The translations under genes were made by a program, and so were the position numbers. From a virus (Duplodnaviria > Caudoviricetes), in the IMG/VR virus record IMGVR_UViG_3300009031_000221, positions 224,001 through 288,000 of that record: a stretch of 64,000 bases of DNA. One strand, 5' to 3'. Shown here in pieces: positions 3,969-19,919 of the stretch (within the stretch, counting starts at the first letter, position 1; each line of letters begins with the position of its first letter). The notes under the pieces are model-generated. The model was not told the DNA's origin, did not search any database, and was given only the letters and a program-made list of their open reading frames with translations.

Positions 3969-4483
3969 TTCTCTACTTCATCGTATTCATACAAGGTATC
4001 GCTGTCAATCCCTGCCTTCTCTTCCCCTTGCGGTTCCCTCGCCTTGTCCATACGCCTACCGCAAACGATTAGCGTATTCCTCCTGTCTGCTTCGTAGGCG
4101 AGAAGCTCACGTTGTAGCAGATGTTGGAAGAATCCAGGTGTACCACAAGCCGTGCCCCCCGTGTTGCACCCAACGTATGCAACCACACTCGCCCGCTCGA
4201 GGATCTCGACAAGACCGTCGATGGCACGACTGTTTGTTGGCCATGCAACGAAGGCCACATCCACCGAGTCCATGAAATCCGCGAAGTACCCATGGATCAC
4301 CTCGATTTGTGGATGCTTCCGCATCCGTGATATTTCCTTGTCCAAAGCCACCGCACGAGTAGCCCCAAGGGAAATGATGTATCGAGACCATTCTCCCGAC
4401 CCGGCACCTAAGTCTGTCACGACCCGGTTCCGAATGAATGGGATCAAGGTTTCCTTTTGCTTGTCGGTTAACCCACCAAACAC
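3959..4483 (-). CDS. SAM-dependent methyltransferase-like protein
   Basis: VTDLGAGSG motif I followed by AVALD. Confidence 0.65.
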   Translation of the reverse strand: MFGGLTDKQKETLIPFIRNRVVTDLGAGSGEWSRYIISLGATRAVALDKEISRMRKHPQIEVIHGYFADFMDSVDVAFVAWPTNSRAIDGLVEILERASVVAYVGCNTGGTACGTPGFFQHLLQRELLAYEADRRNTLIVCGRRMDKAREPQGEEKAGIDSDTLYEYDEVEKCW

Positions 4484-4502
4484 AGATCACCTCATCCGAG
4501 TG

Positions 4503-4530
4503 ATCTACGCACTTGCTGCCAGAAGTAAGT
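4503..4530 (-). promoter_or_regulatory. Promoter motif copy 3
   Basis: CTTAC-N15-CGTAG. Confidence 0.75.
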
Positions 4531-4534
4531 CTGG

Positions 4535-5286
4535 CTAGATGATTCGGAGGACGATGGCAGTGATATTGTCGTTCCCGCCATTCGTATTTGCCTGTCGAAT
4601 CAATTCGTAGACCGCCTGCTTGGGATCGGGATTCGATTCCATGATTCGCAGGATCTCATCGTCTTCGACTTCCCCAGACAAGCCATCCGAACACAGCAAG
4701 TACATGTCCCCAGACTGGGCATCGATCGTCATGATCGGCACCTTGACGGAATCACTCAACCCACAGGCCTGTGTGATGATGTTCTTATGCGGGCACGTGG
4801 CTACCTGTTCCTTGGTGATATACCCTGCATCGAGGTAATGCTGTACTGCCGAATCTTGGTCAACTGATCCAATGACCCGTCCCGCAGTCGATAGATACGG
4901 CTATCCCCCACATGGCCAACCGTGACGTTGTCTTCCCCAACCATCAAGGCAACAACGGTCGTGCCCATGCGATTGACGCGAACATTCCCCTCTGACATGT
5001 TCTTGGAGAAGATCTCAAAGTTCGCCCAATGAATGCACCCATGGATCAGGTTCTCATTGGGGGTCAAGCCCGATTGAACTGACCAAGGGGCTACGGCTTC
5101 CGGATCCGCCAATGCACTTAGAGTCCGTTGGAACGTATCGACAAGCATCTGAGAGGCCACTTCCCCGTCGATATGTCCGCCCATCCCATCCGCGACAACA
5201 AACACCCTATCGGCAATGAGAAGATTGTCCTCATTGTGAGGGCGCCTTTTACCTACATCCGTTTGACCGGCAACTTCGTACTTCAT
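4535..5286 (-). pseudogene. PP2C-family Ser/Thr phosphatase, frameshifted near 4855
   Basis: N-half TDVGKRRPHNED, VADGMGGH, HVGDSR; C-half LLCSDGL, GGNDNIT. Frame changes where QLTKDHS is expected. Confidence 0.85.
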
Positions 5287-5322
5287 GTGAGGCCTCCGAT
5301 ACTTGAGCGGATAGGGGATCTA

Positions 5323-5790
5323 TCAGACGGGCATGAGTTCGCGAACCAGGGTTAAGGTTTCGCCCAACCAGTTCGTCCCCTGCCACCGACTGCGATCCTC
5401 TGCACGGGGATCGTCACGGGGCAAACCAATTCCCCAGACTTTGTCGTAAGGGCTAGCCTCAACCAGGGTCGTACCCTTGGTTGCCAACAGGAGAACCTTC
5501 AGGTCAGGGTTTTGCGCGTACTTCGCCATGCTGGCACGGAATACAACATCCTTGGCGACACTGTTCCACTTGTCCGCATTGAACCCTTTGACGGAACGCC
5601 CAAGGCGCTTCATCTCCTTGGGATCCGAGGTTGCCATGATCATGAGGGCGGCGTCCTTGTCATCAAAGAGCCTTGCCTTCTCAACCATCATGTATTGTTC
5701 AGCACACGTGTAGTGGTATCCGTCAATCTTGAATCTTGACGGATACCACTGGCTGAAAGGTCCGTCCCAGAAGAATGTGAACTTTTCCAT
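5323..5790 (-). CDS. NADAR family protein
   Basis: FSQWYPS, CAEQYMM.KA.LF.D, KRLGR.V.GF, LVEASPYDKVWGIG, G.NWLG. Confidence 0.92.
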   Translation of the reverse strand: MEKFTFFWDGPFSQWYPSRFKIDGYHYTCAEQYMMVEKARLFDDKDAALMIMATSDPKEMKRLGRSVKGFNADKWNSVAKDVVFRASMAKYAQNPDLKVLLLATKGTTLVEASPYDKVWGIGLPRDDPRAEDRSRWQGTNWLGETLTLVRELMPV

Positions 5791-5797
5791 GCTTTCC

Positions 5798-6622
5798 TTA
5801 GATGATCCGCACGAGGGGTCGGATCCTGTCCGGCCATGCCGCACCGTTGATTGCCTCATGAATGTCCGACTCGCGGTACCGGGCAGAGAAGTGCGTCAGC
5901 ACCAATGCCTGGGTGTCGAAGATCTCCGCACGATCCACCAGTTCCTGCAAATGCGTGTGACCACGCTCATCTGCATGAGCCGGAGTTCTATCCCCGGCTG
6001 AATAGGTCGCCTCAGTGATAATCACCTGAGCGTGACGGATGTCCTCAACCCGATCCCACACCGAGACTCGAGTGTCCCCCGTGTAAACCAACCGGGTCAC
6101 GGGATTTACCGTGGAAACTTCCACGCCCTGCGAACGCAATCGGGCAATCTCATCGCCCGGCATCCCAAGGTATTCCGCTTTCAGCTTCTTGCGAGTCTCG
6201 ATGATTCGGTATCCCTGCGACTCGATCCGATGGTCGGTGATGAACGGACGAACGGACAACCCCTTGCCCAGGTCATACGTGACCTCAGGAGGCAGCGGAA
6301 CGATGGTGCAAGGGATTTGCTCGCCGTTTTTCGCACCCTCCAGGGCACCCCAAACCTTGAACAGGGACTGCAGGCTAGGAGCGAGACCGGGAGGAACGAT
6401 GAACACGGAAGGGGTCATCCCCAGCAGGGCACGCCTCGCCGCATGCATGGTGATAGCACCGATATGATCCATATGACCGTGCGTGATCAGTACGGTTTGG
6501 CAGTTGACGGCATCAACCGTCATCATGCCAATGTCCAAGGCAATGCCCATCTGCGGCAACGTGATGCACGTTTCCATACCGCTAACGGAGACACCTTGCA
6601 TTTGGATTCCCGCACAAATCAT
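5798..6622 (-). CDS. rnz: RNase Z (tRNase Z, metallo-beta-lactamase fold)
   Basis: THGHMDH, DHRIESQGY, exosite KKLKAEYLGMPG, YTGDT, EATY, HTH, LTHFSARY. Confidence 0.85.
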   Translation of the reverse strand: MICAGIQMQGVSVSGMETCITLPQMGIALDIGMMTVDAVNCQTVLITHGHMDHIGAITMHAARRALLGMTPSVFIVPPGLAPSLQSLFKVWGALEGAKNGEQIPCTIVPLPPEVTYDLGKGLSVRPFITDHRIESQGYRIIETRKKLKAEYLGMPGDEIARLRSQGVEVSTVNPVTRLVYTGDTRVSVWDRVEDIRHAQVIITEATYSAGDRTPAHADERGHTHLQELVDRAEIFDTQALVLTHFSARYRESDIHEAINGAAWPDRIRPLVRII

Positions 6623-6658
6623 CGAAAGTTCCTAGTAGACATGATGTCCGCTATAGGA

Positions 6659-6686
6659 TCTACGCTAAACTGATAAGAAGTAAGTG
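6659..6686 (-). promoter_or_regulatory. Promoter motif copy 4
   Basis: CTTAC-N15-CGTAG. Confidence 0.75.
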
Positions 6687-6841
6687 GCCGACACAAGAAG
6701 ATTAGTCCGCACGAAGTCTCGTAACTGCTTAATGCAGTCCGTTAGCACTAGTGACAACCCCATTTAGAGTGTTGCCCCCATCCCATTCGCGGTTGCCCGG
6801 TTAGGTACCTTAGCGACGATAGTAAATCTTCCTGGCCGGCC

Positions 6842-6915
6842 GGTGGATCCTGCGGGAGTCGAACCCGCGACTCTGCAATGCGAATGCAGTGTTTTCCCAA
6901 CTGAACTAAGGACCC
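6842..6915 (-). tRNA. tRNA-Ala(CGC)
   Basis: Loop TT-CGC-AT; G3:U70. Confidence 0.92.
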
Positions 6916-7142
6916 GTATGTTCACACTTCTCCATATTGAATCTACCTGGATAGTGCAACTGCTTCCACAAAGGCAAATCTCCATCACAGTTGTAATGAA
7001 TTGCCCAGTTACCTACGAAACATGCGAAGTGCGGGGATCGATAGGGCGATCGGATATACCCATTGATTCCCGTCATGGTGCCGATTCTACCATTAGGCCA
7101 GTAGTACAACCATGCTAATGCTGCACCGGTCAAGCAGTTCAT
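6906..7142 (-). CDS. Hypothetical protein, 78 aa
   Basis: ATGA coupling with the upstream ORF. Confidence 0.4.
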   Translation of the reverse strand: MNCLTGAALAWLYYWPNGRIGTMTGINGYIRSPYRSPHFACFVGNWAIHYNCDGDLPLWKQLHYPGRFNMEKCEHTGP

Positions 7143-7432
7143 CGGGGGAACACAAGGATGGTGAACCCATCCAACGTTCCATCAGGGAACGTTGCCGCAA
7201 TCTTGGCCTTGAATGATTCAACATCACCTTGCCGAAGAATGACTTCCAGCTTGTTTGACCGCAATAGATCCGTTGAATACTTGAATTCTTTGCCCGGTTT
7301 CAACATCGTGCGGAACTTGATCCGCGTTGAGTACTTTTCCGGGTGCCGAACCATTTCTTCAAATGTGGCTTGGCTTGGACTACGGCTGGGGGCACAATCG
7401 TTTGGTTCGCGAATGAAGCGATTCTTTCCCAT
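7139..7432 (-). CDS. Hypothetical protein, 97 aa
   Basis: ORF following the cytochrome gene. Confidence 0.55.
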   Translation of the reverse strand: MGKNRFIREPNDCAPSRSPSQATFEEMVRHPEKYSTRIKFRTMLKPGKEFKYSTDLLRSNKLEVILRQGDVESFKAKIAATFPDGTLDGFTILVFPR

Positions 7433-7450
7433 GTGCCCCCAGTCCCGTAA

Positions 7451-8068
7451 TTACTTCGTGTGGCACGCCAAGCAAAGGCTGCTGCCGGTATTGAGCATGC
7501 GGAGGAACTTGCCCTTCGAGTTGTCATGCACGCTATGGCATGTCGCACACTGCAACTGGGCGCTGAACAGCGGGAGCATCGAAGCTGCATCCACGAACTT
7601 GTCGTTGACCGGAGTCTTCAATCCACCATCTGCCGTTGCCAAAGCCGCATCGTAGACGAACGAAATTGGATGGTCATTGGTCAAATCGGTACCAACCTTC
7701 GCACCCCCCGGATCCATCATGTGCGAACCCGAGTTGTTCGCGTAGGAATCCACTGCAACCGTGCCGTCATGGCAGGACAGGCACAGTTTGGAATTGCCCG
7801 TAGGTTGCCCCAAGACCGCATTCAATGTGCTGCTGCTGTACGTGCTGAACGTAGCCATGGTCACGGCATGGTTCCACAGCGGAGCGCCCGGAACGGCTGC
7901 CGCATTGTGAGGCGTATGGCAGAAGATGCAAACCTGGGTCGTGCCCCAGCCCTTGGACGACAGGTCGTGAGGAGTGCCCACGATCCCTGCGAATGCCGGG
8001 GACTTCCACTCCGGAAGAGCCAACAAACCCAACAATACAACGAGAACGAACAATGATTTACGGAACAT
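7451..8068 (-). CDS. Secreted tetraheme c-type cytochrome, OmcE-like
   Basis: Signal peptide; four CxxCH (CIFCH, CLSCH, CATCH, CLACH); HDLS, HTPHN, PLWN, GTDLTNDHP, LPLF, VHDN, FLR motifs; RBS GGGAGG. Confidence 0.92.
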   Translation of the reverse strand: MFRKSLFVLVVLLGLLALPEWKSPAFAGIVGTPHDLSSKGWGTTQVCIFCHTPHNAAAVPGAPLWNHAVTMATFSTYSSSTLNAVLGQPTGNSKLCLSCHDGTVAVDSYANNSGSHMMDPGGAKVGTDLTNDHPISFVYDAALATADGGLKTPVNDKFVDAASMLPLFSAQLQCATCHSVHDNSKGKFLRMLNTGSSLCLACHTK

Positions 8069-8145
8069 GCTGCCTCCCTATTGGGGCTTATTTGTTCATG
8101 CCCCGTGATTTACCCTAATGATAGGCGGAATACCACCCTACAACG

Positions 8146-8173
8146 TCTACGCATTTCTATGAAGAAGTAAGCC
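8146..8173 (-). promoter_or_regulatory. Promoter motif copy 5 (directly upstream of the cytochrome)
   Basis: CTTAC-N15-CGTAG. Confidence 0.75.
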
Positions 8174-8175
8174 TA

Positions 8176-8409
8176 TCAGATGTCGCTTTGTTGACGCTGA
8201 TGTGCCCAATCCCGCTGGCGTTCAATGCAAAGGTCGGATTCCATGACGGCACCGGCGGAAAGAACCAGCCAACCATCCGTCCATTCTCCATCTTCTTCCT
8301 TGAGCTTCGTGTACTTGCCGACGACGGCCTTGCCCGTAGGAATCCAAGCCGTCTGCTTGGTGCTTTCGCGTTGAAGTTCGCATTGGGTATGTGTCGTATG
8401 CTTTGCCAT
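8176..8409 (-). CDS. Hypothetical protein
   Basis: RBS AGGAG before MAKHTT. Confidence 0.6.
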   Translation of the reverse strand: MAKHTTHTQCELQRESTKQTAWIPTGKAVVGKYTKLKEEDGEWTDGWLVLSAGAVMESDLCIERQRDWAHQRQQSDI

Positions 8410-8685
8410 CGGATGCTCCTGAGGTGAATTTGCCATGTTCGGGGGGTTTAAAGACTGTTACGTTTCGCGGTCTCCCAGGCATGGGAACTATTCCGCCGTC
8501 GATCCCCGAACTACTTGCCCCCGAAATCGCCCCGATCCCTGCCGTTTCTATTGCTAGATTTTGACAGGGCGTGGCTTCGTGGAGGGCTACACGTTTTGAT
8601 ATATCATTCGTTTGTGGAATAAGCGGGCATTGCCGCAAACCCCGATAGTTCCACTATACCCCAGTATGAGTTAGGAGGTCAACAA

Positions 8686-9204
8686 ATGGCGACAATCAAT
8701 AAGACATGTGAGAACTGCACGAAAGAATTCCAGGCCGAAATACGGGAAGTTAACCGAGGCTTTGGTAGATTCTGTACTAGGGCTTGCTCAGGTGCTTTTT
8801 GGGCGACAAGGCGATCCCGGACGACGGCTACTTCGGTTGTTTGCGCTTACTGCAAACAGGATTTCCTGAAGACACCTTCCAAAATGAAGAATGCTAAGAG
8901 TGGCATGTATTTTTGTTGTCGTGAACACAAGGATCTGGCACAACGCCTTGGAGGCATTGTCGCCATACATCCAGAACATTACGGAGATGGCCATGCAGAG
9001 TATCGGAATGTTGCATTCCGTAATTACCCTTCGATTTGCAATCGATGCGGCTATCAACGATTCCCTGATGTTCTCGTCGTTCACCATAAGGATCGAAACA
9101 GGAACAACATTTCCATTAGCAATTTGGAGATTCTTTGCCCCAATTGTCACGGGGAAGAGCACTTTGTTGCCAAGGATGGAATCTGGAGAAATCAAATAAA
9201 GTAG
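8686..9204 (+). CDS. HNH endonuclease, antisense to the tRNA array
   Basis: Zn-finger repeats; CNRCG...VHHKDRNRNN...NLEILCPNCH; RBS AGGAGG. Confidence 0.87.
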   Translation: MATINKTCENCTKEFQAEIREVNRGFGRFCTRACSGAFWATRRSRTTATSVVCAYCKQDFLKTPSKMKNAKSGMYFCCREHKDLAQRLGGIVAIHPEHYGDGHAEYRNVAFRNYPSICNRCGYQRFPDVLVVHHKDRNRNNISISNLEILCPNCHGEEHFVAKDGIWRNQIK

Positions 9205-9277
9205 TGGAGTTGACAGGGATCGAACCTGCGACATTCGGCTTGCAAAGCCGACGCTCTCCCAACTGAGCTACAACCCC
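9205..9277 (-). tRNA. tRNA-Ala(TGC)
   Basis: Loop TT-TGC-AA; G3:U70. Confidence 0.93.
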
Positions 9278-9527
9278 AAAATGATATACCGGGAAACATT
9301 AATGATAACGGTACGGGCGGAAATGAGGGTTCCCCCGTACCTGTAACATGTCTGCCCCTCATACATACACGGTTCAGAGTGGCGAATCCCCGTGCTAGCA
9401 CCATTTCCTTCTTATGCCACCATCATGTTCCTTTCAGGCGGACAAGATCCTCTTTGCATCATTCCCCCTAGAAAGGAACTTAGCCTCACCTCCAAACCGG
9501 TCGACTCGGCGGTGGGCAAGGCACAAA

Positions 9528-9601
9528 GGAGCGGGCGATGGGATTTGAACCCACGACTTTCGGCTTGGGAAGCCGTTACTCTACCGCTGAGTTACGCCCG
9601 C
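9528..9601 (-). tRNA. tRNA-Gly(CCC)
   Basis: Loop TT-CCC-AA. Confidence 0.92.
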
Positions 9602-9787
9602 ACAGTACAGGGCCGTATTGGTGAAGACCAACCGTTTATTCGCACCCTGCAAGGCCGTGTTATATCACCACTAGGGCCTCACCGGCATAGCCCTAGTTGA
9701 ACTGGTGCGTGTCCCTATCTATCAGGTTGTCGTTCAATTGGGATACACGCGAAACCCAATTGACACTTAGGCAACCTAACAGGTTCT

Positions 9788-10015
9788 CTACACTCGTCGA
9801 ACTACAACACCGTCTTTTACCGAGGGTCGCCCTTGAGCTTCCCAGGCACGCTTGCATGTGCGGCATTCGCATTTACATACATGCGGCAATGTAATGTTCC
9901 GATCTGCGTCGGAACCAAGCACAAGATCATCTAATGTGGTCACAACCACTGGACAATCCATGTGATCACGTTCCCATTCATCTAACGAACCCCAAACAGC
10001 ACACTTGTTATCCAT
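9788..10015 (-). CDS. Hypothetical Cys-rich protein, 75 aa
   Basis: CKCECRTC; RBS AAGG. Confidence 0.5.
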   Translation of the reverse strand: MDNKCAVWGSLDEWERDHMDCPVVVTTLDDLVLGSDADRNITLPHVCKCECRTCKRAWEAQGRPSVKDGVVVRRV

Positions 10016-10227
10016 TTACCTTTGCCTTCTTCGAATTTGCTACCGAACTACACCCTTCGTGGGGACAAAGGACACAGCATATGCTCGGTAGCCACACATA
10101 GGGCCTAGACGGTCTACTTCCCAACACAGGAACTCGACTCTATAAGCCTCCACCACTGGATTTAACTCGCCACCCACTTTCGCAGATGCCCTGTCCTACA
10201 AATCCAGAAAGGACTTCCTTCTACGGA

Positions 10228-10302
10228 GGTGGAGTAGATGGGACTTGAACCCATTACCTCCTGCATGCCATGCAGGCGCTCTCCCAGGTGAGCTACTACC
10301 CC
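10228..10302 (-). tRNA. tRNA-Ala(GGC)
   Basis: Loop AT-GGC-AT; G3:U70. Confidence 0.9.
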
Positions 10303-10772: not shown

Positions 10773-12179
10773 CTACGCTTTGAAAGTCAAGATAGGCCTC
10801 ATCTTTGCCACCTTCGACAATATACCCGCCGTTACCTGGGATTGTATCACGGGACCAATGTCCTTGTACGCGGCGGGCGCTTCCTCGATTTTACGCTCAT
10901 ACCGCAATGAAATGCAATCCACACCGTCTAACCCAAGGTTGCCTTCGCGTTTCATGTCCACTCGGGATTGACTTCGACCCGCACCGTGACTTGCCGACAG
11001 CAAGTGTTCTTCCGAACCCAACCCCTTGCAAACATACGATGCTGACCCCATGGACCCAGGAATGAGAAGCCAATCTCCCAGGTTCGCCGGGCAAGCCCCC
11101 TTGCGTTGAATCCATGTCCCCGAATGTTCCAAAGTGATGTTGTGCGGAATGTCTGTAATCATCGGGCACTCCAGGTCGTCCCCGAACACTTGTCGCATTC
11201 TCAATCGGGCAATCTCGGCAATCAACATGCGATTGACCCAGGCATAGTTGACAGCCGTAGCTTCTGCCGTCAAGTAATCCAGTTGACCTTCATCCTCCAG
11301 CAATGGAAACATGTGGCTAGTAGGGAATGGACGCTTGGTTGCTTCCCAGGCCTTACGTGCCCGAGTTTGAGCGTTCTGCCCAACATACAACCCGACGAAT
11401 CGGGAACCCGTATGCGCCATGAACCCGACTTGCCCTACCTTGATTCCCAGGGCATACGCCGCATGCCTATCTAGGATTTCTTCTACGACCTGGAATTCTA
11501 CGAAGTGGTTGCCCCCTCCAATAGTTCCCAACCCGTCATCCCGAATGATCTTGGATCCTATGCCGTCTACCAAGCCTTGAGGGGCGTACTTAACATCTCC
11601 ACGGGCAATGTTTGTGTACTGAACTCGATCACACTCCTCGTGCAACTGCTCAATGCGGGAAGCCTGCGTCATGCCATGCTTCCAACCATCATTGTCCTGG
11701 GCCTCGAGCCACCCAAGTAATCCGTCCGTGAACATCGCCTTTTGGACGCTTACGGTTTGTGCCACATCTCGAGTGCCAAAGAAGTAATCCCCCTTCAGCA
11801 ATTCGACCAAGGCGTCCCGCTTTGCCAGGAACTGATCAATGGTCAAATCCGTGAGGTGCAATCTCATGCCACAGTTGATGTCCGTACCAATGGCTGCCGG
11901 AATCAGAAACTGTGTTTGAACTACGGAACCAATGGCAACGCCCGCATCTCCAGGATGGAAATCCGGTGTGGCACAACATCGAGTGACGCCTTCCAAAGAA
12001 GCCAGATTGGCTAGCTGTAGAAGGGCTTTGTTCTCAACCGGCAATTCGTCTGGAAGCAATACATCCGCATAGGGAAGGTGGTCATGATTGGCAATACGAA
12101 CTTGCCAACCGCCATCGACCTTACGAACATCGAGGCCTTCTTTGACTAGAGCCTTTAGAAGGCGATCGTGATTTGCCAT
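10773..12179 (-). CDS. rtcB: RtcB RNA 2',3'-cyclic phosphate/5'-OH ligase
   Basis: PDFHPG, GTDINCGMRL, GGGNHFVE, HTGSR, PHN, RKGA, PGSMG, SHGAGR, EEAPAAYK. Confidence 0.96.
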   Translation of the reverse strand: MANHDRLLKALVKEGLDVRKVDGGWQVRIANHDHLPYADVLLPDELPVENKALLQLANLASLEGVTRCCATPDFHPGDAGVAIGSVVQTQFLIPAAIGTDINCGMRLHLTDLTIDQFLAKRDALVELLKGDYFFGTRDVAQTVSVQKAMFTDGLLGWLEAQDNDGWKHGMTQASRIEQLHEECDRVQYTNIARGDVKYAPQGLVDGIGSKIIRDDGLGTIGGGNHFVEFQVVEEILDRHAAYALGIKVGQVGFMAHTGSRFVGLYVGQNAQTRARKAWEATKRPFPTSHMFPLLEDEGQLDYLTAEATAVNYAWVNRMLIAEIARLRMRQVFGDDLECPMITDIPHNITLEHSGTWIQRKGACPANLGDWLLIPGSMGSASYVCKGLGSEEHLLSASHGAGRSQSRVDMKREGNLGLDGVDCISLRYERKIEEAPAAYKDIGPVIQSQVTAGILSKVAKMRPILTFKA

Positions 12180-12180
12180 G

Positions 12181-12762
12181 TCATGCCAGCCGTGTCACCG
12201 TCAACGGTGTGATTTGAAGGCTGCGCTTGGTGCCCTTGCGGAGGAACTGCTGGACAACGATCGCCATCTGCGATGCCGCGAGTCCGTGGAAGGGCAGGTT
12301 CTCCCCGTCCTCACACGTTGCTTGTCCAGGTGCCCCTTCCTCATCTGGAACGAAGTGCTCATCCCAAACAACCCGGGCAAACGTACCATCCGCCGACAAA
12401 GCGCCATGCAAACATGGGATGCCATTGGGCTGAACGAACCCTTGGATGATGCGGCGTGCCTCTGCATTGTCCGTGCAGTCAATGACTAGCCCTGCGCCTC
12501 CCAGGATGACCTGTACGTTGTCCTTGGTCAGTTGGTGCGGGGTAGCATCGATCTTGATGCCGAACAGCCCTGCCATCGCTTGCTGAAGCCCCAGTGCCTT
12601 GTTGCGTGCCTTGCTCAGCCCCGTGTGGAACTGAGACATGATGTTCTTCTGCTCGACGCGATCGAAGTCAACAACCTTCAGCCCTTGCTTCCAGTTGCGA
12701 CCGAAGAGAACCAGGTGAGAACCCAATGCCCCTACGCCAACGATTACGATTTGTCCCGCCAT
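12181..12762 (-). CDS. ThiF/E1-like adenylyltransferase
   Basis: IVGVGALGS, VDFDRVEQKN, VIDCTDN, C-terminal ATCE cysteine; abuts rtcB. Confidence 0.9.
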   Translation of the reverse strand: MAGQIVIVGVGALGSHLVLFGRNWKQGLKVVDFDRVEQKNIMSQFHTGLSKARNKALGLQQAMAGLFGIKIDATPHQLTKDNVQVILGGAGLVIDCTDNAEARRIIQGFVQPNGIPCLHGALSADGTFARVVWDEHFVPDEEGAPGQATCEDGENLPFHGLAASQMAIVVQQFLRKGTKRSLQITPLTVTRLA

Positions 12763-12822
12763 GATTGATACCTCAGTTGGGCGCATAGGCACCATGAATC
12801 AGGTCATCCGTGACCTTGCATC

Positions 12823-12851
12823 ATCTACGCGGAATCATCAGGAAGTAAGCC
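12823..12851 (-). promoter_or_regulatory. Promoter motif copy 7
   Basis: CTTAC-N15-CGTAG. Confidence 0.75.
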
Positions 12852-13091
12852 TTAGACTACTGAACATGCGTACAATACGACGCACCCCAAGATTCCGCAT
12901 GCAATCCCGCCTGCGAATACCGCAAGACGGCGCTTGCCACTATTAGTGGCCTTCAGGGCATCTCGTTCTACCGTCAACTTCTTATTATCGAGTTTCAACT
13001 TCTCGATTTCTTGCAAAGCCTCCCGGTACAGAAGCTGCCAAGCGGCATCCATGTTGATTCCCGAGTGCGGCGTACAACCTGAGCAAATCAT
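12852..13091 (-). CDS. Coiled-coil protein with C-terminal membrane anchor
   Basis: Hydrophobic tail LAVFAGGIACGILGCVVLY. Confidence 0.5.
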   Translation of the reverse strand: MICSGCTPHSGINMDAAWQLLYREALQEIEKLKLDNKKLTVERDALKATNSGKRRLAVFAGGIACGILGCVVLYACSVV

Positions 13092-13100
13092 TGTGTCCCC

Positions 13101-13451
13101 TTAGCAGTAATCTTTCAGTGATTCTACAGTTAGATAGCCCGCTTTGCGTAAACGAATGCGAACTTCGACGTACATATGTCCCGTCAATGGGCAATCACTA
13201 TTCCATCCGCCCCGTGAATCATGGCCGTCATTGATCTCAACCATTTCGATTTCACAATCATCAGGGTTGTCAATGTCGCCGTCCGTGACGAATCCTCGAA
13301 CATCGAAACAATCATTAGACCCAACGGCATGCATTTCCAATGCGGTGGAATCAACATCTCCTCCAGGTTGAAGGAGCTTGATTGTCCATCGGGGGTCGGA
13401 CAACAACTTGATGATGTCTTCCGTTTTCCAATGCGTGTTGGTGATATCCAT
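13101..13451 (-). CDS. Hypothetical acidic protein
   Basis: TGATG coupling; RBS GAGGA. Confidence 0.6.
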   Translation of the reverse strand: MDITNTHWKTEDIIKLLSDPRWTIKLLQPGGDVDSTALEMHAVGSNDCFDVRGFVTDGDIDNPDDCEIEMVEINDGHDSRGGWNSDCPLTGHMYVEVRIRLRKAGYLTVESLKDYC

Positions 13452-13759
13452 CAGCGGTTCCTCGATTTGCCTTGACCCCGATTTGCCTTGGCTGCCTTTT
13501 GGCGTTCGATCTTGCCTTCCAACTTGCCGGGAATATGCGGACGAGTTGCAAGTTCGACCCGCAATTCTTCCATGCGATTCAAGTCTTTGGCACGGTATGC
13601 CCGCCACAAGGCATCTTCCGCCGGGGATAGATCCCACGGAGGGGTTTCGCATACCACTCGAAGATCATGCAATTCGTTCAACAGATCTCGCGTATGCCGT
13701 TTGCTATCAGGCAAATGCGGAGGTACGGTGCCTCGTGGGGTTAGGTCATTCATTTTCAT
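13451..13759 (-). CDS. Hypothetical protein, 102 aa
   Basis: Coupled ORF in the operon. Confidence 0.6.
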   Translation of the reverse strand: MKMNDLTPRGTVPPHLPDSKRHTRDLLNELHDLRVVCETPPWDLSPAEDALWRAYRAKDLNRMEELRVELATRPHIPGKLEGKIERQKAAKANRGQGKSRNR

Positions 13760-13763
13760 GTAA

Positions 13764-14492
13764 CTAGCGACTCCGAATCTTCTGACGCGGGATCAAGTGC
13801 AGCGTATCCGCAACCTTCTCGTTGGCCTGCTGTGCGAACCCGATGAGGTTGCGGCTGACCTTGAGGTAGTAGGGATGCTTCAACCATTCCTTGTAGGGCA
13901 AGTTGCTACGAGTCTTGTTGCACTTGCGGCAAGCTGCCACGAGGTTGTCCGGAGTAGAAGGCCCGCCTTCTTCCCAGCAAACCAGGTGGTCAACCGTCAG
14001 AGGAACGTCATCCAGACCACAGTAGCGGCAACGGTAGCCGTCACGCTTGTAGACCTTCCATGAAGTGCCCTGGTCGATTTGACGTTGCGACTTCCGCACG
14101 ACAGTCTTGACGATCTTGCCGTCTTCGCCCGGTGCCAGCATCTCCACGTCAAGGTGGTCCGTTTGCTGGATGAACATCAACCATTCGGCATGATTCATGT
14201 TCAATGCCACGGTAGGCTTGTCAACGGCATCGTGCTCGTCCGGGAACATGACCAAGTAGGTCTTGTCCCGATCGGAGTACACCATCCCAGACATTTGGAT
14301 ATCGGTGCCGATGCGAAGGATGTTGAGGTCGGACAATGGAATGCGTGGCGTAGTCATGTGAAGTTCCTTCATTTCTTGTGCGGTATTCCATATGCGGGAT
14401 GTGATTTCGGCGCTTGACTCTTTAGGGCGATTGTCCCAATCACGATACAAGCGGCGAACTTCTTCATTGAACTCAGGATCAACGATGGACAT
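13764..14492 (-). CDS. HNH endonuclease with N-terminal extension
   Basis: RDGYRCRYCG...TVDHLV..EEGG...DNLVAACRKCN. Confidence 0.87.
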   Translation of the reverse strand: MSIVDPEFNEEVRRLYRDWDNRPKESSAEITSRIWNTAQEMKELHMTTPRIPLSDLNILRIGTDIQMSGMVYSDRDKTYLVMFPDEHDAVDKPTVALNMNHAEWLMFIQQTDHLDVEMLAPGEDGKIVKTVVRKSQRQIDQGTSWKVYKRDGYRCRYCGLDDVPLTVDHLVCWEEGGPSTPDNLVAACRKCNKTRSNLPYKEWLKHPYYLKVSRNLIGFAQQANEKVADTLHLIPRQKIRSR

Positions 14493-14498
14493 GAATTC

Positions 14499-14786
14499 CT
14501 ACTTGGCGTTCTTGACCATATCTGCGGGATTCAATGCCTGAAGCTTGAGCAAGCTCTTGGCGATTGCCTTTTCCTTCTTGGCGATCTTCTTGGTGATCTG
14601 GACTACTGCTTCAGCTTCCGTGATAGCATAATCACCCTCAAAGATAAGTCCCCCATACCACTTGGGGCCACGAAAGCACTTCTTGGATTTCCCGACAATA
14701 GACGAGACTTCCTCTCCTGCGATCTTGGTCACACCCGTTGTCAGGGCATACTTGGTCACAAACACTTCGCCAACGTGCATTGTCAT
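14499..14786 (-). CDS. Hypothetical protein
   Basis: RBS AAGGG before MTMHVG. Confidence 0.6.
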   Translation of the reverse strand: MTMHVGEVFVTKYALTTGVTKIAGEEVSSIVGKSKKCFRGPKWYGGLIFEGDYAITEAEAVVQITKKIAKKEKAIAKSLLKLQALNPADMVKNAK

Positions 14787-14790
14787 GTTA

Positions 14791-15048
14791 TCACCCTTCC
14801 TGGTCGTATGCGTCGTAGTGACTGAAGTCATGCGGGATGTCCCCCGCCTGGAGTTCCACGAACGTACGGCACTGGCAGTACTTGCATCCGATTGGAGACA
14901 TGTTCTCGTAGGTATCGAAGTGCCGTTCGTAGTTATGCCCACACTTACAGATCCGTTCGTCACCATATTTCGGATTGTATTCCCGAACTTCGACGATGAC
15001 GATTCGTTTCTTCTTGATGATGTATGGGGGTTCAGGTTTCGTTTTCAT
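14791..15048 (-). CDS. Hypothetical Zn-finger protein
   Basis: CKCGH...H...CKYCQC. Confidence 0.55.
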   Translation of the reverse strand: MKTKPEPPYIIKKKRIVIVEVREYNPKYGDERICKCGHNYERHFDTYENMSPIGCKYCQCRTFVELQAGDIPHDFSHYDAYDQEG

Positions 15049-15052
15049 GGTA

Positions 15053-15081
15053 CATCTACGCATTACGCCCTGAAAGTAAGT
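15053..15081 (-). promoter_or_regulatory. Promoter motif copy 8
   Basis: CTTAC-N15-CGTAG. Confidence 0.75.
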
Positions 15082-15164
15082 TAGATGCCAAAGCGCCTGT
15101 GGGATCACGTAGGATCCCACAGGCGCCCGGGAAAGTCACTTCCGCCGAACGGATTTCGTGGTCC

Positions 15165-15461
15165 TCACCCGAAGGCTAGATCACAACCAAACGGCGTCTT
15201 GGGGCGCAGGAAGATGCGGTTGTCCGGAACTTCATCGTTGGACGGGAAGCGATCCACAACGAAGTCCGCGAAGTTCGCGTTCTGGTCGGCGGGAATACCC
15301 GGGATGCCGTTCTGCACAGCCTCCTGAGCGAGGCGGCGAAGATCATCCGCGCCAAGGTCGAAGGGAACAGCCTCAACGAGATCTCCGTTGTTGCCTGCCC
15401 AAGTGATGTTGAAACGTGCCTCGTTCTGAGCAAAAAGACGGTCTGCCATATTGTCCTCCAT
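15165..15461 (-). CDS. Ubiquitin-like (beta-grasp) protein ending ...RPKTPFG-CDLAFG
   Basis: Small, beta-rich, Gly-terminated protein directly downstream of JAB; ARFNITWAG.NGDL and FVVDRF pattern. Confidence 0.72.
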   Translation of the reverse strand: MEDNMADRLFAQNEARFNITWAGNNGDLVEAVPFDLGADDLRRLAQEAVQNGIPGIPADQNANFADFVVDRFPSNDEVPDNRIFLRPKTPFGCDLAFG

Positions 15462-15465
15462 CTAT

Positions 15466-15870
15466 CTAGCGGGAAATCGCCCGCAGTTCTTCTAGGTCTT
15501 CCAGAATCAGTTCTCGCGGAAACCCCATGGCTTCCCCGTTGCATGTATCCAAGGCCCCATAGCCTTGGTGTTCTTCGTCGTAGTACATGAAGACGAACGT
15601 CTTCACATCTGTGAAAGTTGCGATAGGCCACATCAGGTTTCGCCCGAGGCCTAGTTCAATCGCACGGAACGTAGTCACGTCCGTATATGAACACCAGGAC
15701 TCCCCATCCCACGGATGAGTATGAGCCACCCCGCCAAGGTTATGGCGATTATCCCAGATGATTTCCCACAGGTTGCGGGAGTCCGGAATAGCTCCGCCGG
15801 TCCGACCCTTTGGCACATGCCAATGGAGGGTCTTACCTGCCTTGTCGAATACCAATGCGTTCTCCATCAT
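15466..15870 (-). CDS. JAB/JAMM metalloprotease
   Basis: N-terminal E, then HTHP-x6-CS-xx-D (HTHPWDGESWCSYTD). Confidence 0.85.
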   Translation of the reverse strand: MMENALVFDKAGKTLHWHVPKGRTGGAIPDSRNLWEIIWDNRHNLGGVAHTHPWDGESWCSYTDVTTFRAIELGLGRNLMWPIATFTDVKTFVFMYYDEEHQGYGALDTCNGEAMGFPRELILEDLEELRAISR

Positions 15871-15879
15871 ATCGGAACC

Positions 15880-16162
15880 TCGTTACAGTGACGTTGCATG
15901 CCCCCATGCATTACCCGCAGGCCGGAGTATCATATTTCACTCCAGGATCCCCACAAACGTATGGGTTTCGAACCCTCCGTCACGTTCATTCGCCCTTTCG
16001 GGGCTCGAATCATATGCACGGTTAGATACCACCCTATCCGTGCAAATCCAGTGAGGGGGCTCTTGGTAAAGTCCCCCCAACCCTGGTAACTCCCTATGTT
16101 ATTGGGGCCGGTTCGGGTTCCGGCACTTCACTGCAGCTAACCGCAGCGCCCAAATTCGATTG
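15880..16162 (-). ncRNA. Structured ncRNA candidate C2
   Basis: No ORF; ~70-nt core at 16085-16153 is paralogous to 16492-16565. Confidence 0.55.
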
Positions 16163-16164
16163 TG

Positions 16165-16572
16165 GGGCTATCACGGCTTACCCACCAACGCACTCCATCC
16201 GTTCTTGTGTGAGTTCTCCCACAGAAGTACCGATTTGAGGCTGGGTTCCGGTTATCCCGGTCACACTCATGGAAGGCGTTCCATGCCAGCTTAGGCCCGA
16301 TCCCGGCCATACGTGCAGCGTGTAGGTTCGGTCAACCCCACGTTTCAATGAGCGCTGGTAGCTTAGGTCTCTACGTTGCAGTCACGCTGCAATCCGCCTA
16401 CCAGTCTTACCTAGACCTTAGACCCCATCGTATTTTGGACACGGTTTCCCGTGTCACACACTTCGTCCACACCTATTGAGCTAGGATAGAAGCTAACTCC
16501 CGATGTTATTGGGGACGGTACGGGTTCCGTGATTTCGCTGAGGGGTTTAGCCTGCAACGCCCAATATTGTTG
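16165..16572 (-). ncRNA. Structured ncRNA candidate C1
   Basis: 5' core shared with C2, with a compensatory stem change (ACGG/CCGT vs CCGG/CCGG). Confidence 0.55.
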
Positions 16573-16579
16573 ACAGGAC

Positions 16580-17700
16580 GTACCCATCATCGTATTTGCC
16601 CCCTGTTTGAGCTTATGTCATCCGGGGGCGCAATGACGTAATTTGCTCTTTACCTATACCCAGTTGTCTCCCGTAGGAGATCGTATTTATGGCTGTCCCG
16701 AATGTAAAACTAGGACTATCGCCAGCCACATGCGACCCTTTTTCCCACCCACTACGGTGAGTTCACCTCGTCAGAAGGGCTCCGACTAGGGGCAGTGAAC
16801 CCCTGGTATGTTGCCTCATACGTTATGAGGTCGTTCTGGATGGAGGCTAGGGATCACACCCCCCTAGCATGTCCCGCCCACGTTCGACGGGTCTATTCAA
16901 CGGCGGTCGCCGTGCCCCAACCCTAGTAGACAACCCCGCTCGAGGGTGTCGTCGATTGTTCATATGAATCGGACTGCCAGCCCTGTTCGGCTCCGCAAAG
17001 GGGTGCCTACTAGGGGCCAGTGATCCCGACCCATATGTCCCCGACTGGGAGCTACCCAGCCGGATGGCTTATGCATGCCTGCATTCGCCAAAGTTCTATC
17101 GTGTTGGGCACTGACCGGGATGGACGGGCCTCACACCCGCAACCACCCCGTCTTGCCGACGGGTCCTCTGCAAATCTCTTTTCCCTCCAGGTAGCCTCAC
17201 CTTCGGTACTAAGAAATCCGGGATCCTCCTGAACGGGCCTTGGCCAAGGTTTGCCGTTAATTCGGATTGCCTACTTGCAGCTACACGCCGGGTCAATGCC
17301 CAACAGTTCAAGGCAGAACAGGATCCAGAAGCAACCGGTTTGCCCTCCGGAGGATCCTCACAGTGTTACTCTCTAGCGGGGGTTCGATCTTTTGGACGGG
17401 CAAGTCCTCAACCGCCGTACCGCCTCGGACAAAGTGGGGCTTTCAGTTCAGGGCACATTTTCAGCCCCTACCCTATCTTCCGCACCCTGTTCTGCCGTGA
17501 ACATGTTCTGCCGAGAGTGAAATGAGGGAGCTTTACGGCATCCACACGGTATTGGCTCCTTTTACAGGGAGCACGAATAGGGCACTGCAGACCCTTTGAC
17601 ACCGCAGTAAAAAGCATCTCCCGTCTGCCACGACCCCTTGCGGGCCACTTCACTCTCGGCAGAACTTCTAGAGCCTGAGGCGGTTCGCAACCGCCCTCTT
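16580..17700 (-). ncRNA. Large ornate ncRNA B (~1.1 kb, GOLLD-like?)
   Basis: Starts at a promoter motif; no ORF; 17-bp inverted repeat 17504-17520/17649-17665; shares CCCGTCGAACGTGG and a GTATAGGTAAAG...GCAAATACG 3' domain with RNA A. Confidence 0.65.
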
Positions 17701-17705
17701 GTTCC

Positions 17706-17734
17706 ATCTACGCGGCAGCCCCTGAAGGTAAGCC
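17706..17734 (-). promoter_or_regulatory. Promoter motif copy 9
   Basis: CTTAC-N15-CGTAG. Confidence 0.75.
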
Positions 17735-17737
17735 CCG

Positions 17738-18480
17738 CCACGGTCGTATTTGCCTCCCTGAGTGGGCTTCCAGCATCCGGGAGGCATGATGGATAGAAAA
17801 CGCCCTTTACCTATACACGGTAATGCCCCACGTCTGCGGCATCGTTCTGCTGTGGCACTAGGGCTGCGTCCCTAGCATGGCTCGCGTCCACGTTCGACGG
17901 GCCACTACAGCAAGAGTGCTGTAACCACGGCTTGGTTGACCATCCCCGTGCGGGGGATATCAGTCGTATTTGCGTGGCAACGGGTTGGCTACCGTATCAA
18001 TCCTGGCCATTGCAGACCCGAATCCCGCCATCGCAATTACCCCCACCACATGGGCGACGGCTGCGATACGGTGCCTCGGTTTAACGCCGAGGCTCGATCC
18101 ACACACTGTTTAGGGCTTGTGTCCGCACAGGACGGCCCTTCGTTCTTTGACCAGCCCAGGGTTCGTCCTGAACCTCCGCCCTGTTGGGCGGCGTGCTTCT
18201 TACACCATCTGATCGCAACTAGGCATCTTCGGGTAGCGAGCCAGAAGATGTAGGTGCTGGTTTCGAACCCAACACCTTGTTCCCCATCGTTCGGGGGGAA
18301 GGGGCCGAAGCCCCCGCCCCAAGTCCTTGGATTTGCCCAACCCCCATTACACTGCTTCAGCTACCAAAGCCCGCTTTGCAGTCCCGACCTTCAAGGGTGT
18401 CGTCCCCTAACATCCTTTACGCGATTTGGCATGGACACAGAGTCGAACCCTGTTCGGAAAGCTCGCAGCCTCCCGTCCAT
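17738..18480 (-). ncRNA. Large ornate ncRNA A (~740 nt, GOLLD-like?)
   Basis: Bracketed by two promoter motifs; dense hairpins; 3' domain covaries with RNA B. Confidence 0.65.
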
Positions 18481-18485
18481 GATCC

Positions 18486-18514
18486 ATCTACGCATGAACC
18501 ACCTGAAGTAAGCC
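18486..18514 (-). promoter_or_regulatory. Promoter motif copy 10
   Basis: CTTAC-N15-CGTAG. Confidence 0.75.
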
Positions 18515-18531
18515 CAGGGTTCAGATCTTTT

Positions 18532-18650
18532 TCAGTCGTCGTCATCCCAGTCATCCCGGTCGTCCCGATCAACGCCCCAGTCGGGGTTCGCACCAGGACC
18601 AGGGTCGCCCGCAACGTGACGCCACACAACCAGTTTGCCACCACGTTGGA
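18532..18650 (-). pseudogene. Orphan 3' end of the 21122-22120 gene
   Basis: Encodes GGKLVVWRHVAGDPG...DWDDDD*, versus EGKLVVWRHVAGDPG...DWED*. Confidence 0.7.
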
Positions 18651-18668
18651 CATCCAACTTTCGGATAT

Positions 18669-19919
18669 TTACAGGCTTTCCCGAACCAATGGATCCCCGC
18701 CGCAGACTTTGCATGGCACCAGCGTCTTCAAGGATTCTTCGGTGACGGTGACGTTTTGTTTGGTGCCTATGGTTGCCACGTATCGGCATTCAGGAGCGTG
18801 AACAACCGTGGAATGCGATGATTTTACCACTAGATTTCCGATGATGTCAGCCAAGGTCAAGCGGGCTTCCACTTTTACCAAGTTGGTGATCTGACGATCT
18901 TCATCATCCAACCCAAGGATCTCATTGATCAGATCTGTGCTTCGCGGGTGGCCGTACCTAGCAGCTTTGCGTTGTTGGATTTCATTCAAGTCTTTCCACA
19001 TGCCCATGCCGGATGCTTTTGCCGATGCTTCTAGTCTGTTGTAAGTGTCCAGCACGAAAGGTTCGATTGGGAACACGTCTAAGACTTCTGCACACCCTTC
19101 TTCCAGAAGGGTTTCACCCATCAATCTTCCATCCACTAGGATGTGGGCGGTCAAGCGTCCATACCGATCGTAGACCCATCCTTGTTGAACTTGTTCGGCA
19201 TCCAAGCGGATGGAAATGTTGGTGGCTTGACGAAGGATGCGTTCCGCCATGTGGGTTGCCTGCAATCCGTAGTGCCCAATGGATTTGGTTGGGTGGCACG
19301 TCTCCGGGCAGTCAAAACCAACAAGGCGAACCTTGAAGTTTTCACCCGTGGATGGGATAGCCACCCGAACCGTATCGCCGTCAATGATGTCCGTCAAAGA
19401 ACAGGGGACGGCCTTTGTTCCAAATTTCGGGGAAGGCCATTTGTTCTGGGTCACAAGCCCCAAACATTCCTGCTTGTACTTGGCAGTCCGCTCTTGAACT
19501 TGTGCATCCCGATCTTTTCCGATGTCGTCCCCAAACATGGTGGCTACCGTAGCCACTAGTGGTTTCTGTGCAAACAGCTCTGCCCTACGGACCTGGTTTT
19601 CCCGCATCTTGGTTAGGTACTTGCGAGCCCTCGATGAATTTCCGTTTGTGATTGCTTGGATTTGACGCGATGTGTTGTTACCCAACAATGGTTCTAGATC
19701 GTCCCGTGCAATACCAAGACCTGCAAGTACGGTTTGTGTCGCTCGTTCTTGCTGTTGCAGTTGCCGACCAAAGGCTTTCAGGTCTTCCCCTTTGGCTTTC
19801 AGGTCTTCTTCCACACCACGCATTCGCTTCCCCCATGTTGTGAACGGGATCAGGTGTGGCAAAACCAAAAGCACAAGGATCCCAAGCCAAGCTAGTGTTC
19901 CCCATGTTGCGTATTCCAT
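18669..19919 (-). CDS. Thermonuclease (SNase) with N-terminal membrane anchor and coiled coil
   Basis: IIDGDTV, VRLVGFDCPE, DRYGRLTAHI, ETLLEEGCA, AK..GMGMW; C-terminal Ada-like H..ECR...C..C. Confidence 0.87.
   Translation of the reverse strand: MEYATWGTLAWLGILVLLVLPHLIPFTTWGKRMRGVEEDLKAKGEDLKAFGRQLQQQERATQTVLAGLGIARDDLEPLLGNNTSRQIQAITNGNSSRARKYLTKMRENQVRRAELFAQKPLVATVATMFGDDIGKDRDAQVQERTAKYKQECLGLVTQNKWPSPKFGTKAVPCSLTDIIDGDTVRVAIPSTGENFKVRLVGFDCPETCHPTKSIGHYGLQATHMAERILRQATNISIRLDAEQVQQGWVYDRYGRLTAHILVDGRLMGETLLEEGCAEVLDVFPIEPFVLDTYNRLEASAKASGMGMWKDLNEIQQRKAARYGHPRSTDLINEILGLDDEDRQITNLVKVEARLTLADIIGNLVVKSSHSTVVHAPECRYVATIGTKQNVTVTEESLKTLVPCKVCGGDPLVRESL

Follow-up and report, generated by a model that had tools for sequence, protein, structure and literature searches.

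A predicted OmcE-family tetrahaem cytochrome encoded by a 536-kb tailed phage

A tetrahaem cytochrome gene among phage tRNA genes

The stretch of DNA analysed here (64,000 nucleotides (nt), hereafter the window) comprises bases 224001-288000 of the IMG/VR record IMGVR_UViG_3300009031_000221, which is 536,053 bp long and rated 100% complete by CheckV. On the minus strand of the window, 231 kb into the record and between tRNA-Ala genes, lies a gene predicted to encode a 205-residue tetrahaem c-type cytochrome precursor (P0001; Table 1). Judged by its sequence, its set of haem ligands and its modelled fold, the phage has an intact gene of the OmcE family, the secreted tetrahaem c-type cytochromes from which Geobacter and Desulfuromonas build conductive filaments outside the cell. 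The leader starts with a basic n-region (MFRK), followed by a hydrophobic core and A-F-A ahead of G28, and reads as a signal peptide of the Sec type; an earlier note on this DNA, made from the letters and without database searches, had already claimed a signal peptide here. In the alignments, the mature start GI.GT.HDLS is kept across homologs and the leaders are variable.

The same note had pointed to four CxxCH motifs and four candidate distal histidines, and all of them were recovered. The histidines H34, H54 and H181 are invariant in both the 36- and the 132-sequence alignments, and H133 is invariant in the former and conserved to at least 90% in the latter. Across 119 homologs, the phage protein carries the consensus residue at all 67 columns with a conservation of at least 90% (67/67).

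Table 1 Features of the cytochrome gene and its upstream region (positions in the window unless another locus is named) and OmcE-like genes on other phage contigs
Feature	Position	Strand	Basis or comparison
OmcE-family tetrahaem c-type cytochrome precursor, predicted coding sequence (P0001), 205 residues	7451-8068	-	Open reading frame; ATG at 8068
Predicted Sec signal peptide, residues 1-27, cleavage after A-F-A	7988-8068	-	Read by eye
CxxCH haem site 1, C47-H51	7916-7930	-	Invariant in alignments A1 and A2
CxxCH haem site 2, C96-H100	7769-7783	-	Invariant in A1 and A2
CxxCH haem site 3, C174-H178	7535-7549	-	Invariant in A1 and A2
CxxCH haem site 4, C199-H203	7460-7474	-	Invariant in A1 and A2
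H34 (PHDLS), candidate distal His near the mature N-terminus	7967-7969	-	100% in 119 homologs; aligns with the His of tkHDLSS in 7tfs_A
H54 (TPHN), candidate distal His after haem site 1	7907-7909	-	99-100% in 119 homologs
H133 (NDHP), candidate distal His	7670-7672	-	99% in 119 homologs; aligns with NDHP of both OmcE structures
H181 (SVHD), candidate distal His after haem site 3	7526-7528	-	99-100% in 119 homologs
Ribosome-binding site GGGAGG, 4 nt ahead of the ATG	8073-8078	-	Sequence
Hairpin in the 5' untranslated region, GGGGC, 12-nt loop, GCCCC, between promoter and ribosome-binding site	8083-8104	-	Sequence
Perfect copy of the phage-specific bipartite motif (promoter-like), GGCTTACTT-N12-GCGTAGAC	8145-8173	-	3' end 77 nt ahead of the ATG
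Orphan open reading frame, 97 residues, start 18 nt past the cytochrome stop codon	7139-7432	-	Open reading frame list
OmcE-like gene P0004, ENA contig of about 190 kb, 40% GC (guanine plus cytosine)	L002, 10001-10603		72% identity to P0001
OmcE-like gene of a 304-kb IMG/VR phage	L060, 9791-10549		49% identity to P0001; terminase present
OmcE-like gene of a 166-kb IMG/VR contig	L061		42% identity to P0001; phage-type primase and DnaB helicase nearby

Full-length homology to OmcE nanowires

A phmmer search against the sequences of the PDB returned two significant matches only, both of full length: 7tfs_A (E 1.8e-31, query 23-205 to chain 20-232), which is the OmcE filament or nanowire of Geobacter sulfurreducens (PMC12954529), and 9yuq_N (E 6e-25, query 16-205 to chain 9-218), which belongs to the OmcE nanowire bundle of Desulfuromonas soudanensis (PMC13712944). 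The earlier note had called the cytochrome OmcE-like and had listed the order of the OmcE motifs; the HMMER alignment to 7tfs_A reproduces that order residue by residue, and both best solved homologs are nanowires, not the non-polymerising periplasmic cytochromes that the note had named as the outcome speaking against it. In Pfam, the protein matches generic multihaem signatures only (Paired_CXXCH_1, E 2e-10), and NCBIfam holds no specific model for it. It falls into a compact and very large branch of OmcE-like tetrahaem proteins, with more than 7300 matches, and the best 120 homologs all contain exactly four CxxCH motifs in 188-261 residues.

The AlphaFold2 model of the phage protein without haems, based on 132 homologs, reached a predicted local distance difference test score (pLDDT) of 84.5 and a predicted template modelling score (pTM) of 0.77; the 36-sequence alignment gave an unusable model (pLDDT 44), and the larger alignment was used instead. 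Foldseek against the PDB found 7TFS as the sole significant match to this model (E 1.2e-9, template modelling (TM) scores 0.63/0.64, 39% identity over 203 columns). In OmcE, four further conserved histidines act as distal haem ligands (PMC13712944), and within the filaments each subunit contributes a histidine that completes one haem of its neighbour (PMC9473688, PMC12954529, PMC13712944). The phage protein retains all eight of these OmcE ligand histidines, four in the CxxCH motifs and four others, and the latter four align with histidines of both solved OmcE proteins. A complex prediction for two mature copies, supplied with only four haems in total, gave a score of 0.01, which speaks neither for nor against polymerisation.

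With G. sulfurreducens OmcE (GSU0618, 7TFS) the phage protein shares full-length homology, the order of motifs and histidines, a mostly-coil fold and a secreted precursor. It differs in being about 25 residues shorter, in lacking the longer Geobacter loops and in having His rather than Arg after PLWN; furthermore, its polymerisation is a prediction, and its gene lacks the barrel, propeller, multihaem and glycosylation genes that flank omcE. The OmcE of D. soudanensis WTL (9YUQ) likewise shares full-length homology and the haem-ligand set, is of similar size (218 versus 205 residues) and, like the phage protein, has none of the long loops that PMC13712944 ties to putative glycosylation in the Geobacter protein, whereas its gene is chromosomal and lies inside a minimal OmcE cluster.

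The residue after PLWN is a ninth histidine, H67 (window 7868-7870), which is conserved to 99% in the compact branch, whereas both solved OmcE filaments have Arg there. Rather than serving as an axial ligand, it probably provides a basic contact to a haem propionate. The idea discussed in PMC13712944, by which such a residue could mark a self-satisfied 'anchor' or monomeric form, was rejected for H67 because this position alternates between H, R and K across the OmcE family.

Integrity of the phage genome

This 536-kb record is a real tailed-phage genome from groundwater with no chimeric join at the cytochrome gene; the earlier note had asked for confirmation that the contig is viral and had named a chimera as an outcome that would speak against it. 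In addition to the completeness rating, genes for three phage functions lie about 70-85 kb upstream of the window: a large terminase (phrog_2, E 1.6e-27, identified with PHROGs), a clamp loader and a head maturation protease. The Pfam model Terminase_6N had no match in the phage. Single contigs from four groundwater metagenome runs each cover window positions 4000-10285 and cross both junctions of the gene with zero differences and even depth. The four runs belong to one study and the source sample may be among them, so that this agreement speaks for reproducibility and not for full independence. Apart from that partial dependence, nothing was found in favour of an assembly or binning artefact joining cellular DNA to a phage contig, and such an artefact is extremely improbable: phage tRNA genes and promoters of the phage motif lie on both sides of the gene, one of them directly before it, and the nucleotide identity to the nearest cellular copy is just 76%, which rules out a simple mis-join with host DNA.

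Predicted expression from a phage promoter class

The earlier note had placed a copy of a phage promoter motif about 75 nt upstream of the gene, followed by a strong ribosome-binding site, and both were located (Table 1). The 9-mer GGCTTACTT occurs 32 times in the genome and is nearly always followed by GCGTAGA(T) 12 nt further on, a short hairpin, a ribosome-binding site and a start codon. In its generalised form, G(A/G)CTTACTT-N12-GCGTAGA, it occurs at 115 of the genome's 158 GCGTAGA sites with the spacing fixed at 12 nt and is absent from shuffled sequence, and its strict form has 28 genome copies compared with 0.0 in 20 shuffles. The motif is dense at 200-540 kb of the genome and nearly absent at 40-200 kb, where the head and packaging genes are found. 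It therefore looks like the promoter class of the non-structural genes, and we infer an early or middle timing for the genes that it drives. Since a perfect copy stands before the cytochrome gene, the expression of the latter appears to be tied to the phage programme.

Within the window, 22 copies of G(A/G)CTTACTT-N12-GCGTAGAT were counted, for example at 12830, 18493, 19967 and 37784 on the minus strand. The motif resembles a sigma-70 -35/-10 pair poorly, and a phage-encoded sigma factor or RNA polymerase may thus read it. Many genes have a short GC-rich hairpin between the motif and the ribosome-binding site, often with GGAT/ACGA in the loop (e.g. window 8104-8083), which may be a shared 5' untranslated element for stability or for a phage RNA-binding regulator.

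Cellular relatives and origin of the gene

The nearest cellular homologs are two copies (L008 and L009) in an uncultured Myxococcales metagenome-assembled genome (MAG; CAIXAA01), with 79 and 82% identity to the phage protein, and P0002 on the metagenome contig L004 (65% GC), with 83% identity. Over the mature region, the cellular copies are 83-84% identical to it. In the maximum-likelihood tree, which answers the comparison with host copies proposed in the earlier note, the phage protein falls into one clade with the Myxococcales MAG and P0002 copies (support 98/94). The ratio of nonsynonymous to synonymous substitution rates (dN/dS) between phage and cellular copies is 0.06-0.09, with the synonymous rate (dS) saturated. 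The GC content at third codon positions (GC3) is 0.71 in the phage gene, 0.58 ± 0.08 on average in the phage and 0.77-0.91 in the cellular copies, i.e. the gene has partly drifted toward the base composition of the phage. Owing to the clade placement, the dN/dS values, the saturated synonymous sites and the intermediate GC3, the gene can be regarded, as far as sequence comparison tells, as an old, host-derived acquisition under purifying selection.

The phage copy and the copies of the Myxococcales MAG and L004 agree in clade, length and conserved residues at 79-84% identity; their settings differ. The cellular copies are located in DNA of 65-68% GC beside a sigma-54 two-component pair, multihaem cytochromes, NHL propellers and a ~680-residue protein, whereas the phage copy differs in its signal peptide, stands behind a phage promoter and is lower in GC3. 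On L004, the gene follows a pair of haem-sensor kinase and sigma-54 regulator and is followed by an NHL propeller, a multihaem cytochrome, the ~680-residue protein, further cytochromes and a second NHL protein. The ~680-residue protein is kept in the Myxococcales MAG and is distantly related to ~700-residue proteins flanking OmcE-like genes in Planctomycetota loci. By gene content, this cellular neighbourhood matches the OmcE cluster composition described in PMC13712944. The sensor kinase upstream of P0002 (1030 residues; L004 862-5644, together with the sigma-54 response regulator) itself contains CxxCH motifs.

None of the cluster genes of L004 or L009 has a homolog in the phage, and no maturation gene of the CcmF/CcsA family was found in the phage genome; the Myxococcales MAG has four genes of that family. 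No other phage gene in the genome contains three or more CxxCH motifs. The only two other open reading frames in the phage with two CxxCH motifs (window 25794-26555, minus strand, and G000 526181-527137, plus strand) probably encode zinc-binding proteins rather than cytochromes, and the former had no Pfam match.

Related genes in other large phages

OmcE-like genes were also found on three further large contigs (Table 1). P0004 lies between genes for a gp32-type single-stranded DNA-binding protein (SSB) and a UvsX-like recombinase, near a DNA polymerase and a T4 endonuclease V homolog; the phage nature of its contig is read from the flanking SSB, recombinase and polymerase genes. The contig comes from an unrelated jumbo phage, in which the OmcE-like gene is inserted into a T4-like replication module. 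With a GC3 of 0.38, P0004 is fully ameliorated, and the identical protein is recorded on 47 contigs. In L060, the gene lies beside a tmRNA (6651-7031) and a tRNA array (11055-19565). The terminase match of L060 is split into two pieces with one in-frame TAG (G001:C1:26865-29005), which could be an intron, an intein or stop-codon recoding.

The flanks of these other loci and the 536-kb phage have practically nothing in common. By phylogeny, L061 is paired with a copy from Betaproteobacteria (97/93), L060 falls into a separate set of metagenome proteins (100/96), and P0004 is possibly sister to P0001, though support is weak (71/66). For the four phage copies together, one common origin is rejected (approximately unbiased (AU) test, p 2.5e-13), and the tree thus argues for at least three independent captures by large phages. 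The scan of IMG/VR with a single sequence found nothing, the scan with the alignment returned seven loci, and tblastn against 50,697 GenBank phage records gave no match. The small contigs L062-L065 (low estimated completeness where checked) and the fragmentary matches L065 and L066 were left out as evidence.

These data bear on the possibility that the gene is a neutral passenger, recently captured from the host and of no use to the phage. Huge phages do bear many host-like genes, and the GC3 of the gene is still above the phage mean. Nevertheless, a recent and idle capture is improbable, given that the mature protein has remained 83-84% identical while synonymous sites became saturated, that a perfect phage promoter and a strong ribosome-binding site precede the gene, that large phages acquired such genes at least three times independently, and that the copy of the ~190-kb phage (40% GC) is fully ameliorated and its exact protein spread over 47 contigs.

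Proposed role in extracellular electron transfer

The reading that we favour, and to which we give about an even chance, is that of a respiratory auxiliary gene, in line with the role in extracellular electron transfer that the earlier note had offered as an inference: it would supply the nanowire machinery of the host with subunits and thereby keep the electron outlet of the host open. Its transcription would go along with that of the non-structural phage genes (probably the early or middle set), among them the tRNA islands and the NAD genes, and the precursor would be exported by the host Sec system. As the phage has no maturation genes of its own, haem would have to be attached by the cytochrome c maturation system of the host. 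The subunit would then enter the OmcE-type machinery of outer-membrane barrel, propeller and multihaem proteins of the host, on which the gene would depend in trans because the phage is devoid of the cluster genes, and would be added to the extracellular filaments, where a histidine of the next subunit completes one haem of each. In this way, the electron outlet of the host to Fe(III)/Mn(IV) minerals or to partner cells would be kept or enlarged, and respiration and ATP supply would then go on through the long infection cycle of so large a phage once host gene expression declines. The logic would be that of psbA (D1) in cyanophages, the classical energy-supply auxiliary gene.

Several points weigh against this proposal. 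First, PMC13712944 accepts OmcE homologs as nanowire candidates only if barrel and propeller genes are nearby; these are present next to the nearest cellular homologs, and the phage has neither in cis. Second, a close cellular relative (P0008, 70% identity) stands alone, beside peptidyl-prolyl isomerases. Third, polymerisation of the phage protein, or of any member of the compact branch, is a sequence-based prediction. Fourth, the putative host is assigned from the gene tree only, and the GC content of the phage is 52%, compared with 65-68% in the putative donor. Fifth, none of the runs listed that contain the cytochrome gene is an RNA run, and no transcript evidence was found. Finally, the physiological need for cytochrome filaments is disputed in Geobacter (PMC11077965).

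Some of these points would suit a non-polymerising tetrahaem carrier, i.e. a shuttle or electron store, soluble in the periplasm or loosely attached to the surface, that buffers the redox state of the host during infection. OmcE-like tetrahaem genes are widespread (>7300) with filament structures for two only, stand-alone cellular copies such as P0008 exist, and the phage has no barrel or propeller genes, the neighbours to which the nanowire candidates in PMC13712944 are limited. However, both solved relatives are filaments and the PDB contains no monomeric structure of the family, the eight ligand histidines of the phage protein include the set that leaves one haem for the next subunit (PMC9473688, PMC13712944), and the nearest cellular copies are located in OmcE-type clusters. 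We therefore regard a carrier of this kind as somewhat unlikely.

Alternatively, the phage subunit could remodel the cell surface by joining or capping host filaments, which would alter a phage receptor (superinfection exclusion) or change the architecture of biofilms or aggregates in favour of phage spread. Pili and flagella filaments are common phage receptors. The gene belongs to the non-structural promoter class, the phage copy differs from the cellular ones at 16-17% of its mature residues, and OmcE bundles have been proposed as biofilm shapers (PMC13712944). Such a function is quite unlikely, however, because the low dN/dS (0.06-0.09) and the absence of any departure at conserved columns point to a biochemical role that has stayed the same and not to an altered or dominant-negative subunit, and the literature search revealed no link of any phage to cytochrome filaments as receptors.

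Feeding subunits to host nanowires may also extend beyond one phage. Tentatively, and with clear reservations, we suggest that large phages of mineral-respiring anaerobes repeatedly captured the filament subunit gene, that phage subunits co-polymerise into host nanowires, and that viruses thereby have direct control over the capacity for extracellular electron transfer in aquifers and anoxic lakes and, through it, over Fe/Mn reduction or electron exchange between species. The gene is not a one-off, since unrelated large phages captured its kind at least three times independently.

Precedents and significance

Nanowires made of cytochromes are regarded as a chromosomal speciality of Geobacter-like bacteria, and there is still debate on how they are assembled and turned over and on whether the cell needs them. 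That a phage carries the subunit alone, with its own promoter and under strong purifying selection, suggests that the subunit is probably a limiting or fast-consumed part of the system, and that it can probably be supplied in trans to an existing export and assembly machine. If the proposed role holds, the gene would represent a new class of auxiliary metabolic gene, one acting outside the cell, and extracellular electron transfer would join the processes reprogrammed by viruses, and with it the cycling of iron and manganese as well as syntrophy in groundwater and in the anoxic water of lakes.

The arrangement parallels that of cyanophage psbA and of the pmoC- and amoC-phages, in which a large phage likewise carries one host-derived subunit of an energy-conserving machine of the host and the host provides the rest of the apparatus; it differs in that the product here would be an extracellular, predicted polymerising component of electron transfer. 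The earlier note had called multihaem cytochromes very unusual phage cargo, and this stands as far as rarity is concerned, but it needs qualification, since large mobile elements offer precedents: amoC-phages carry a NapC/NirT multihaem cytochrome (bioRxiv 10.64898/2026.06.18.733297), and Borgs and jumbo extrachromosomal elements of Methanoperedens carry multihaem cytochromes as well (PMC9605863, PMC13444090). The Borgs and jumbo elements are also large mobile elements of anaerobes with cytochromes of extracellular electron transfer; however, they are archaeal and non-viral and have other cytochrome families, whereas the present case is a tailed bacteriophage with an OmcE-family gene. The literature search found no report of a phage-encoded cytochrome of a nanowire family or of a phage-encoded extracellular polymerising component of electron transfer. 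As judged from its sequence, the gene is a phage-borne, putative auxiliary metabolic gene from the OmcE nanowire family.

Other features of the window

The 97-residue orphan open reading frame downstream of the cytochrome gene is probably co-transcribed with it and had no Pfam match, and neither this frame nor a neighbouring orphan frame of 86 residues had homologs among the fetched loci. The other genes in the neighbourhood encode a PP2C phosphatase, a NADAR protein, a hydrolase of the metallo-beta-lactamase (MBL) fold, HNH endonucleases, RtcB and a ThiF-like protein. In total, 46 tRNA genes and a tmRNA were identified in the window. At 1-35400 on the minus strand, the tRNA genes form two islands, the tmRNA (1791-2190) carries the tag ANDNVEFTSFAAAA, and HNH endonucleases (8686-9204 and 13764-14492), RtcB (10773-12179) and the ThiF-like, NADAR, PP2C and MBL-fold genes are distributed among the islands. 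This part of the window resembles an extensive region of a huge phage devoted to translation and tRNA repair.

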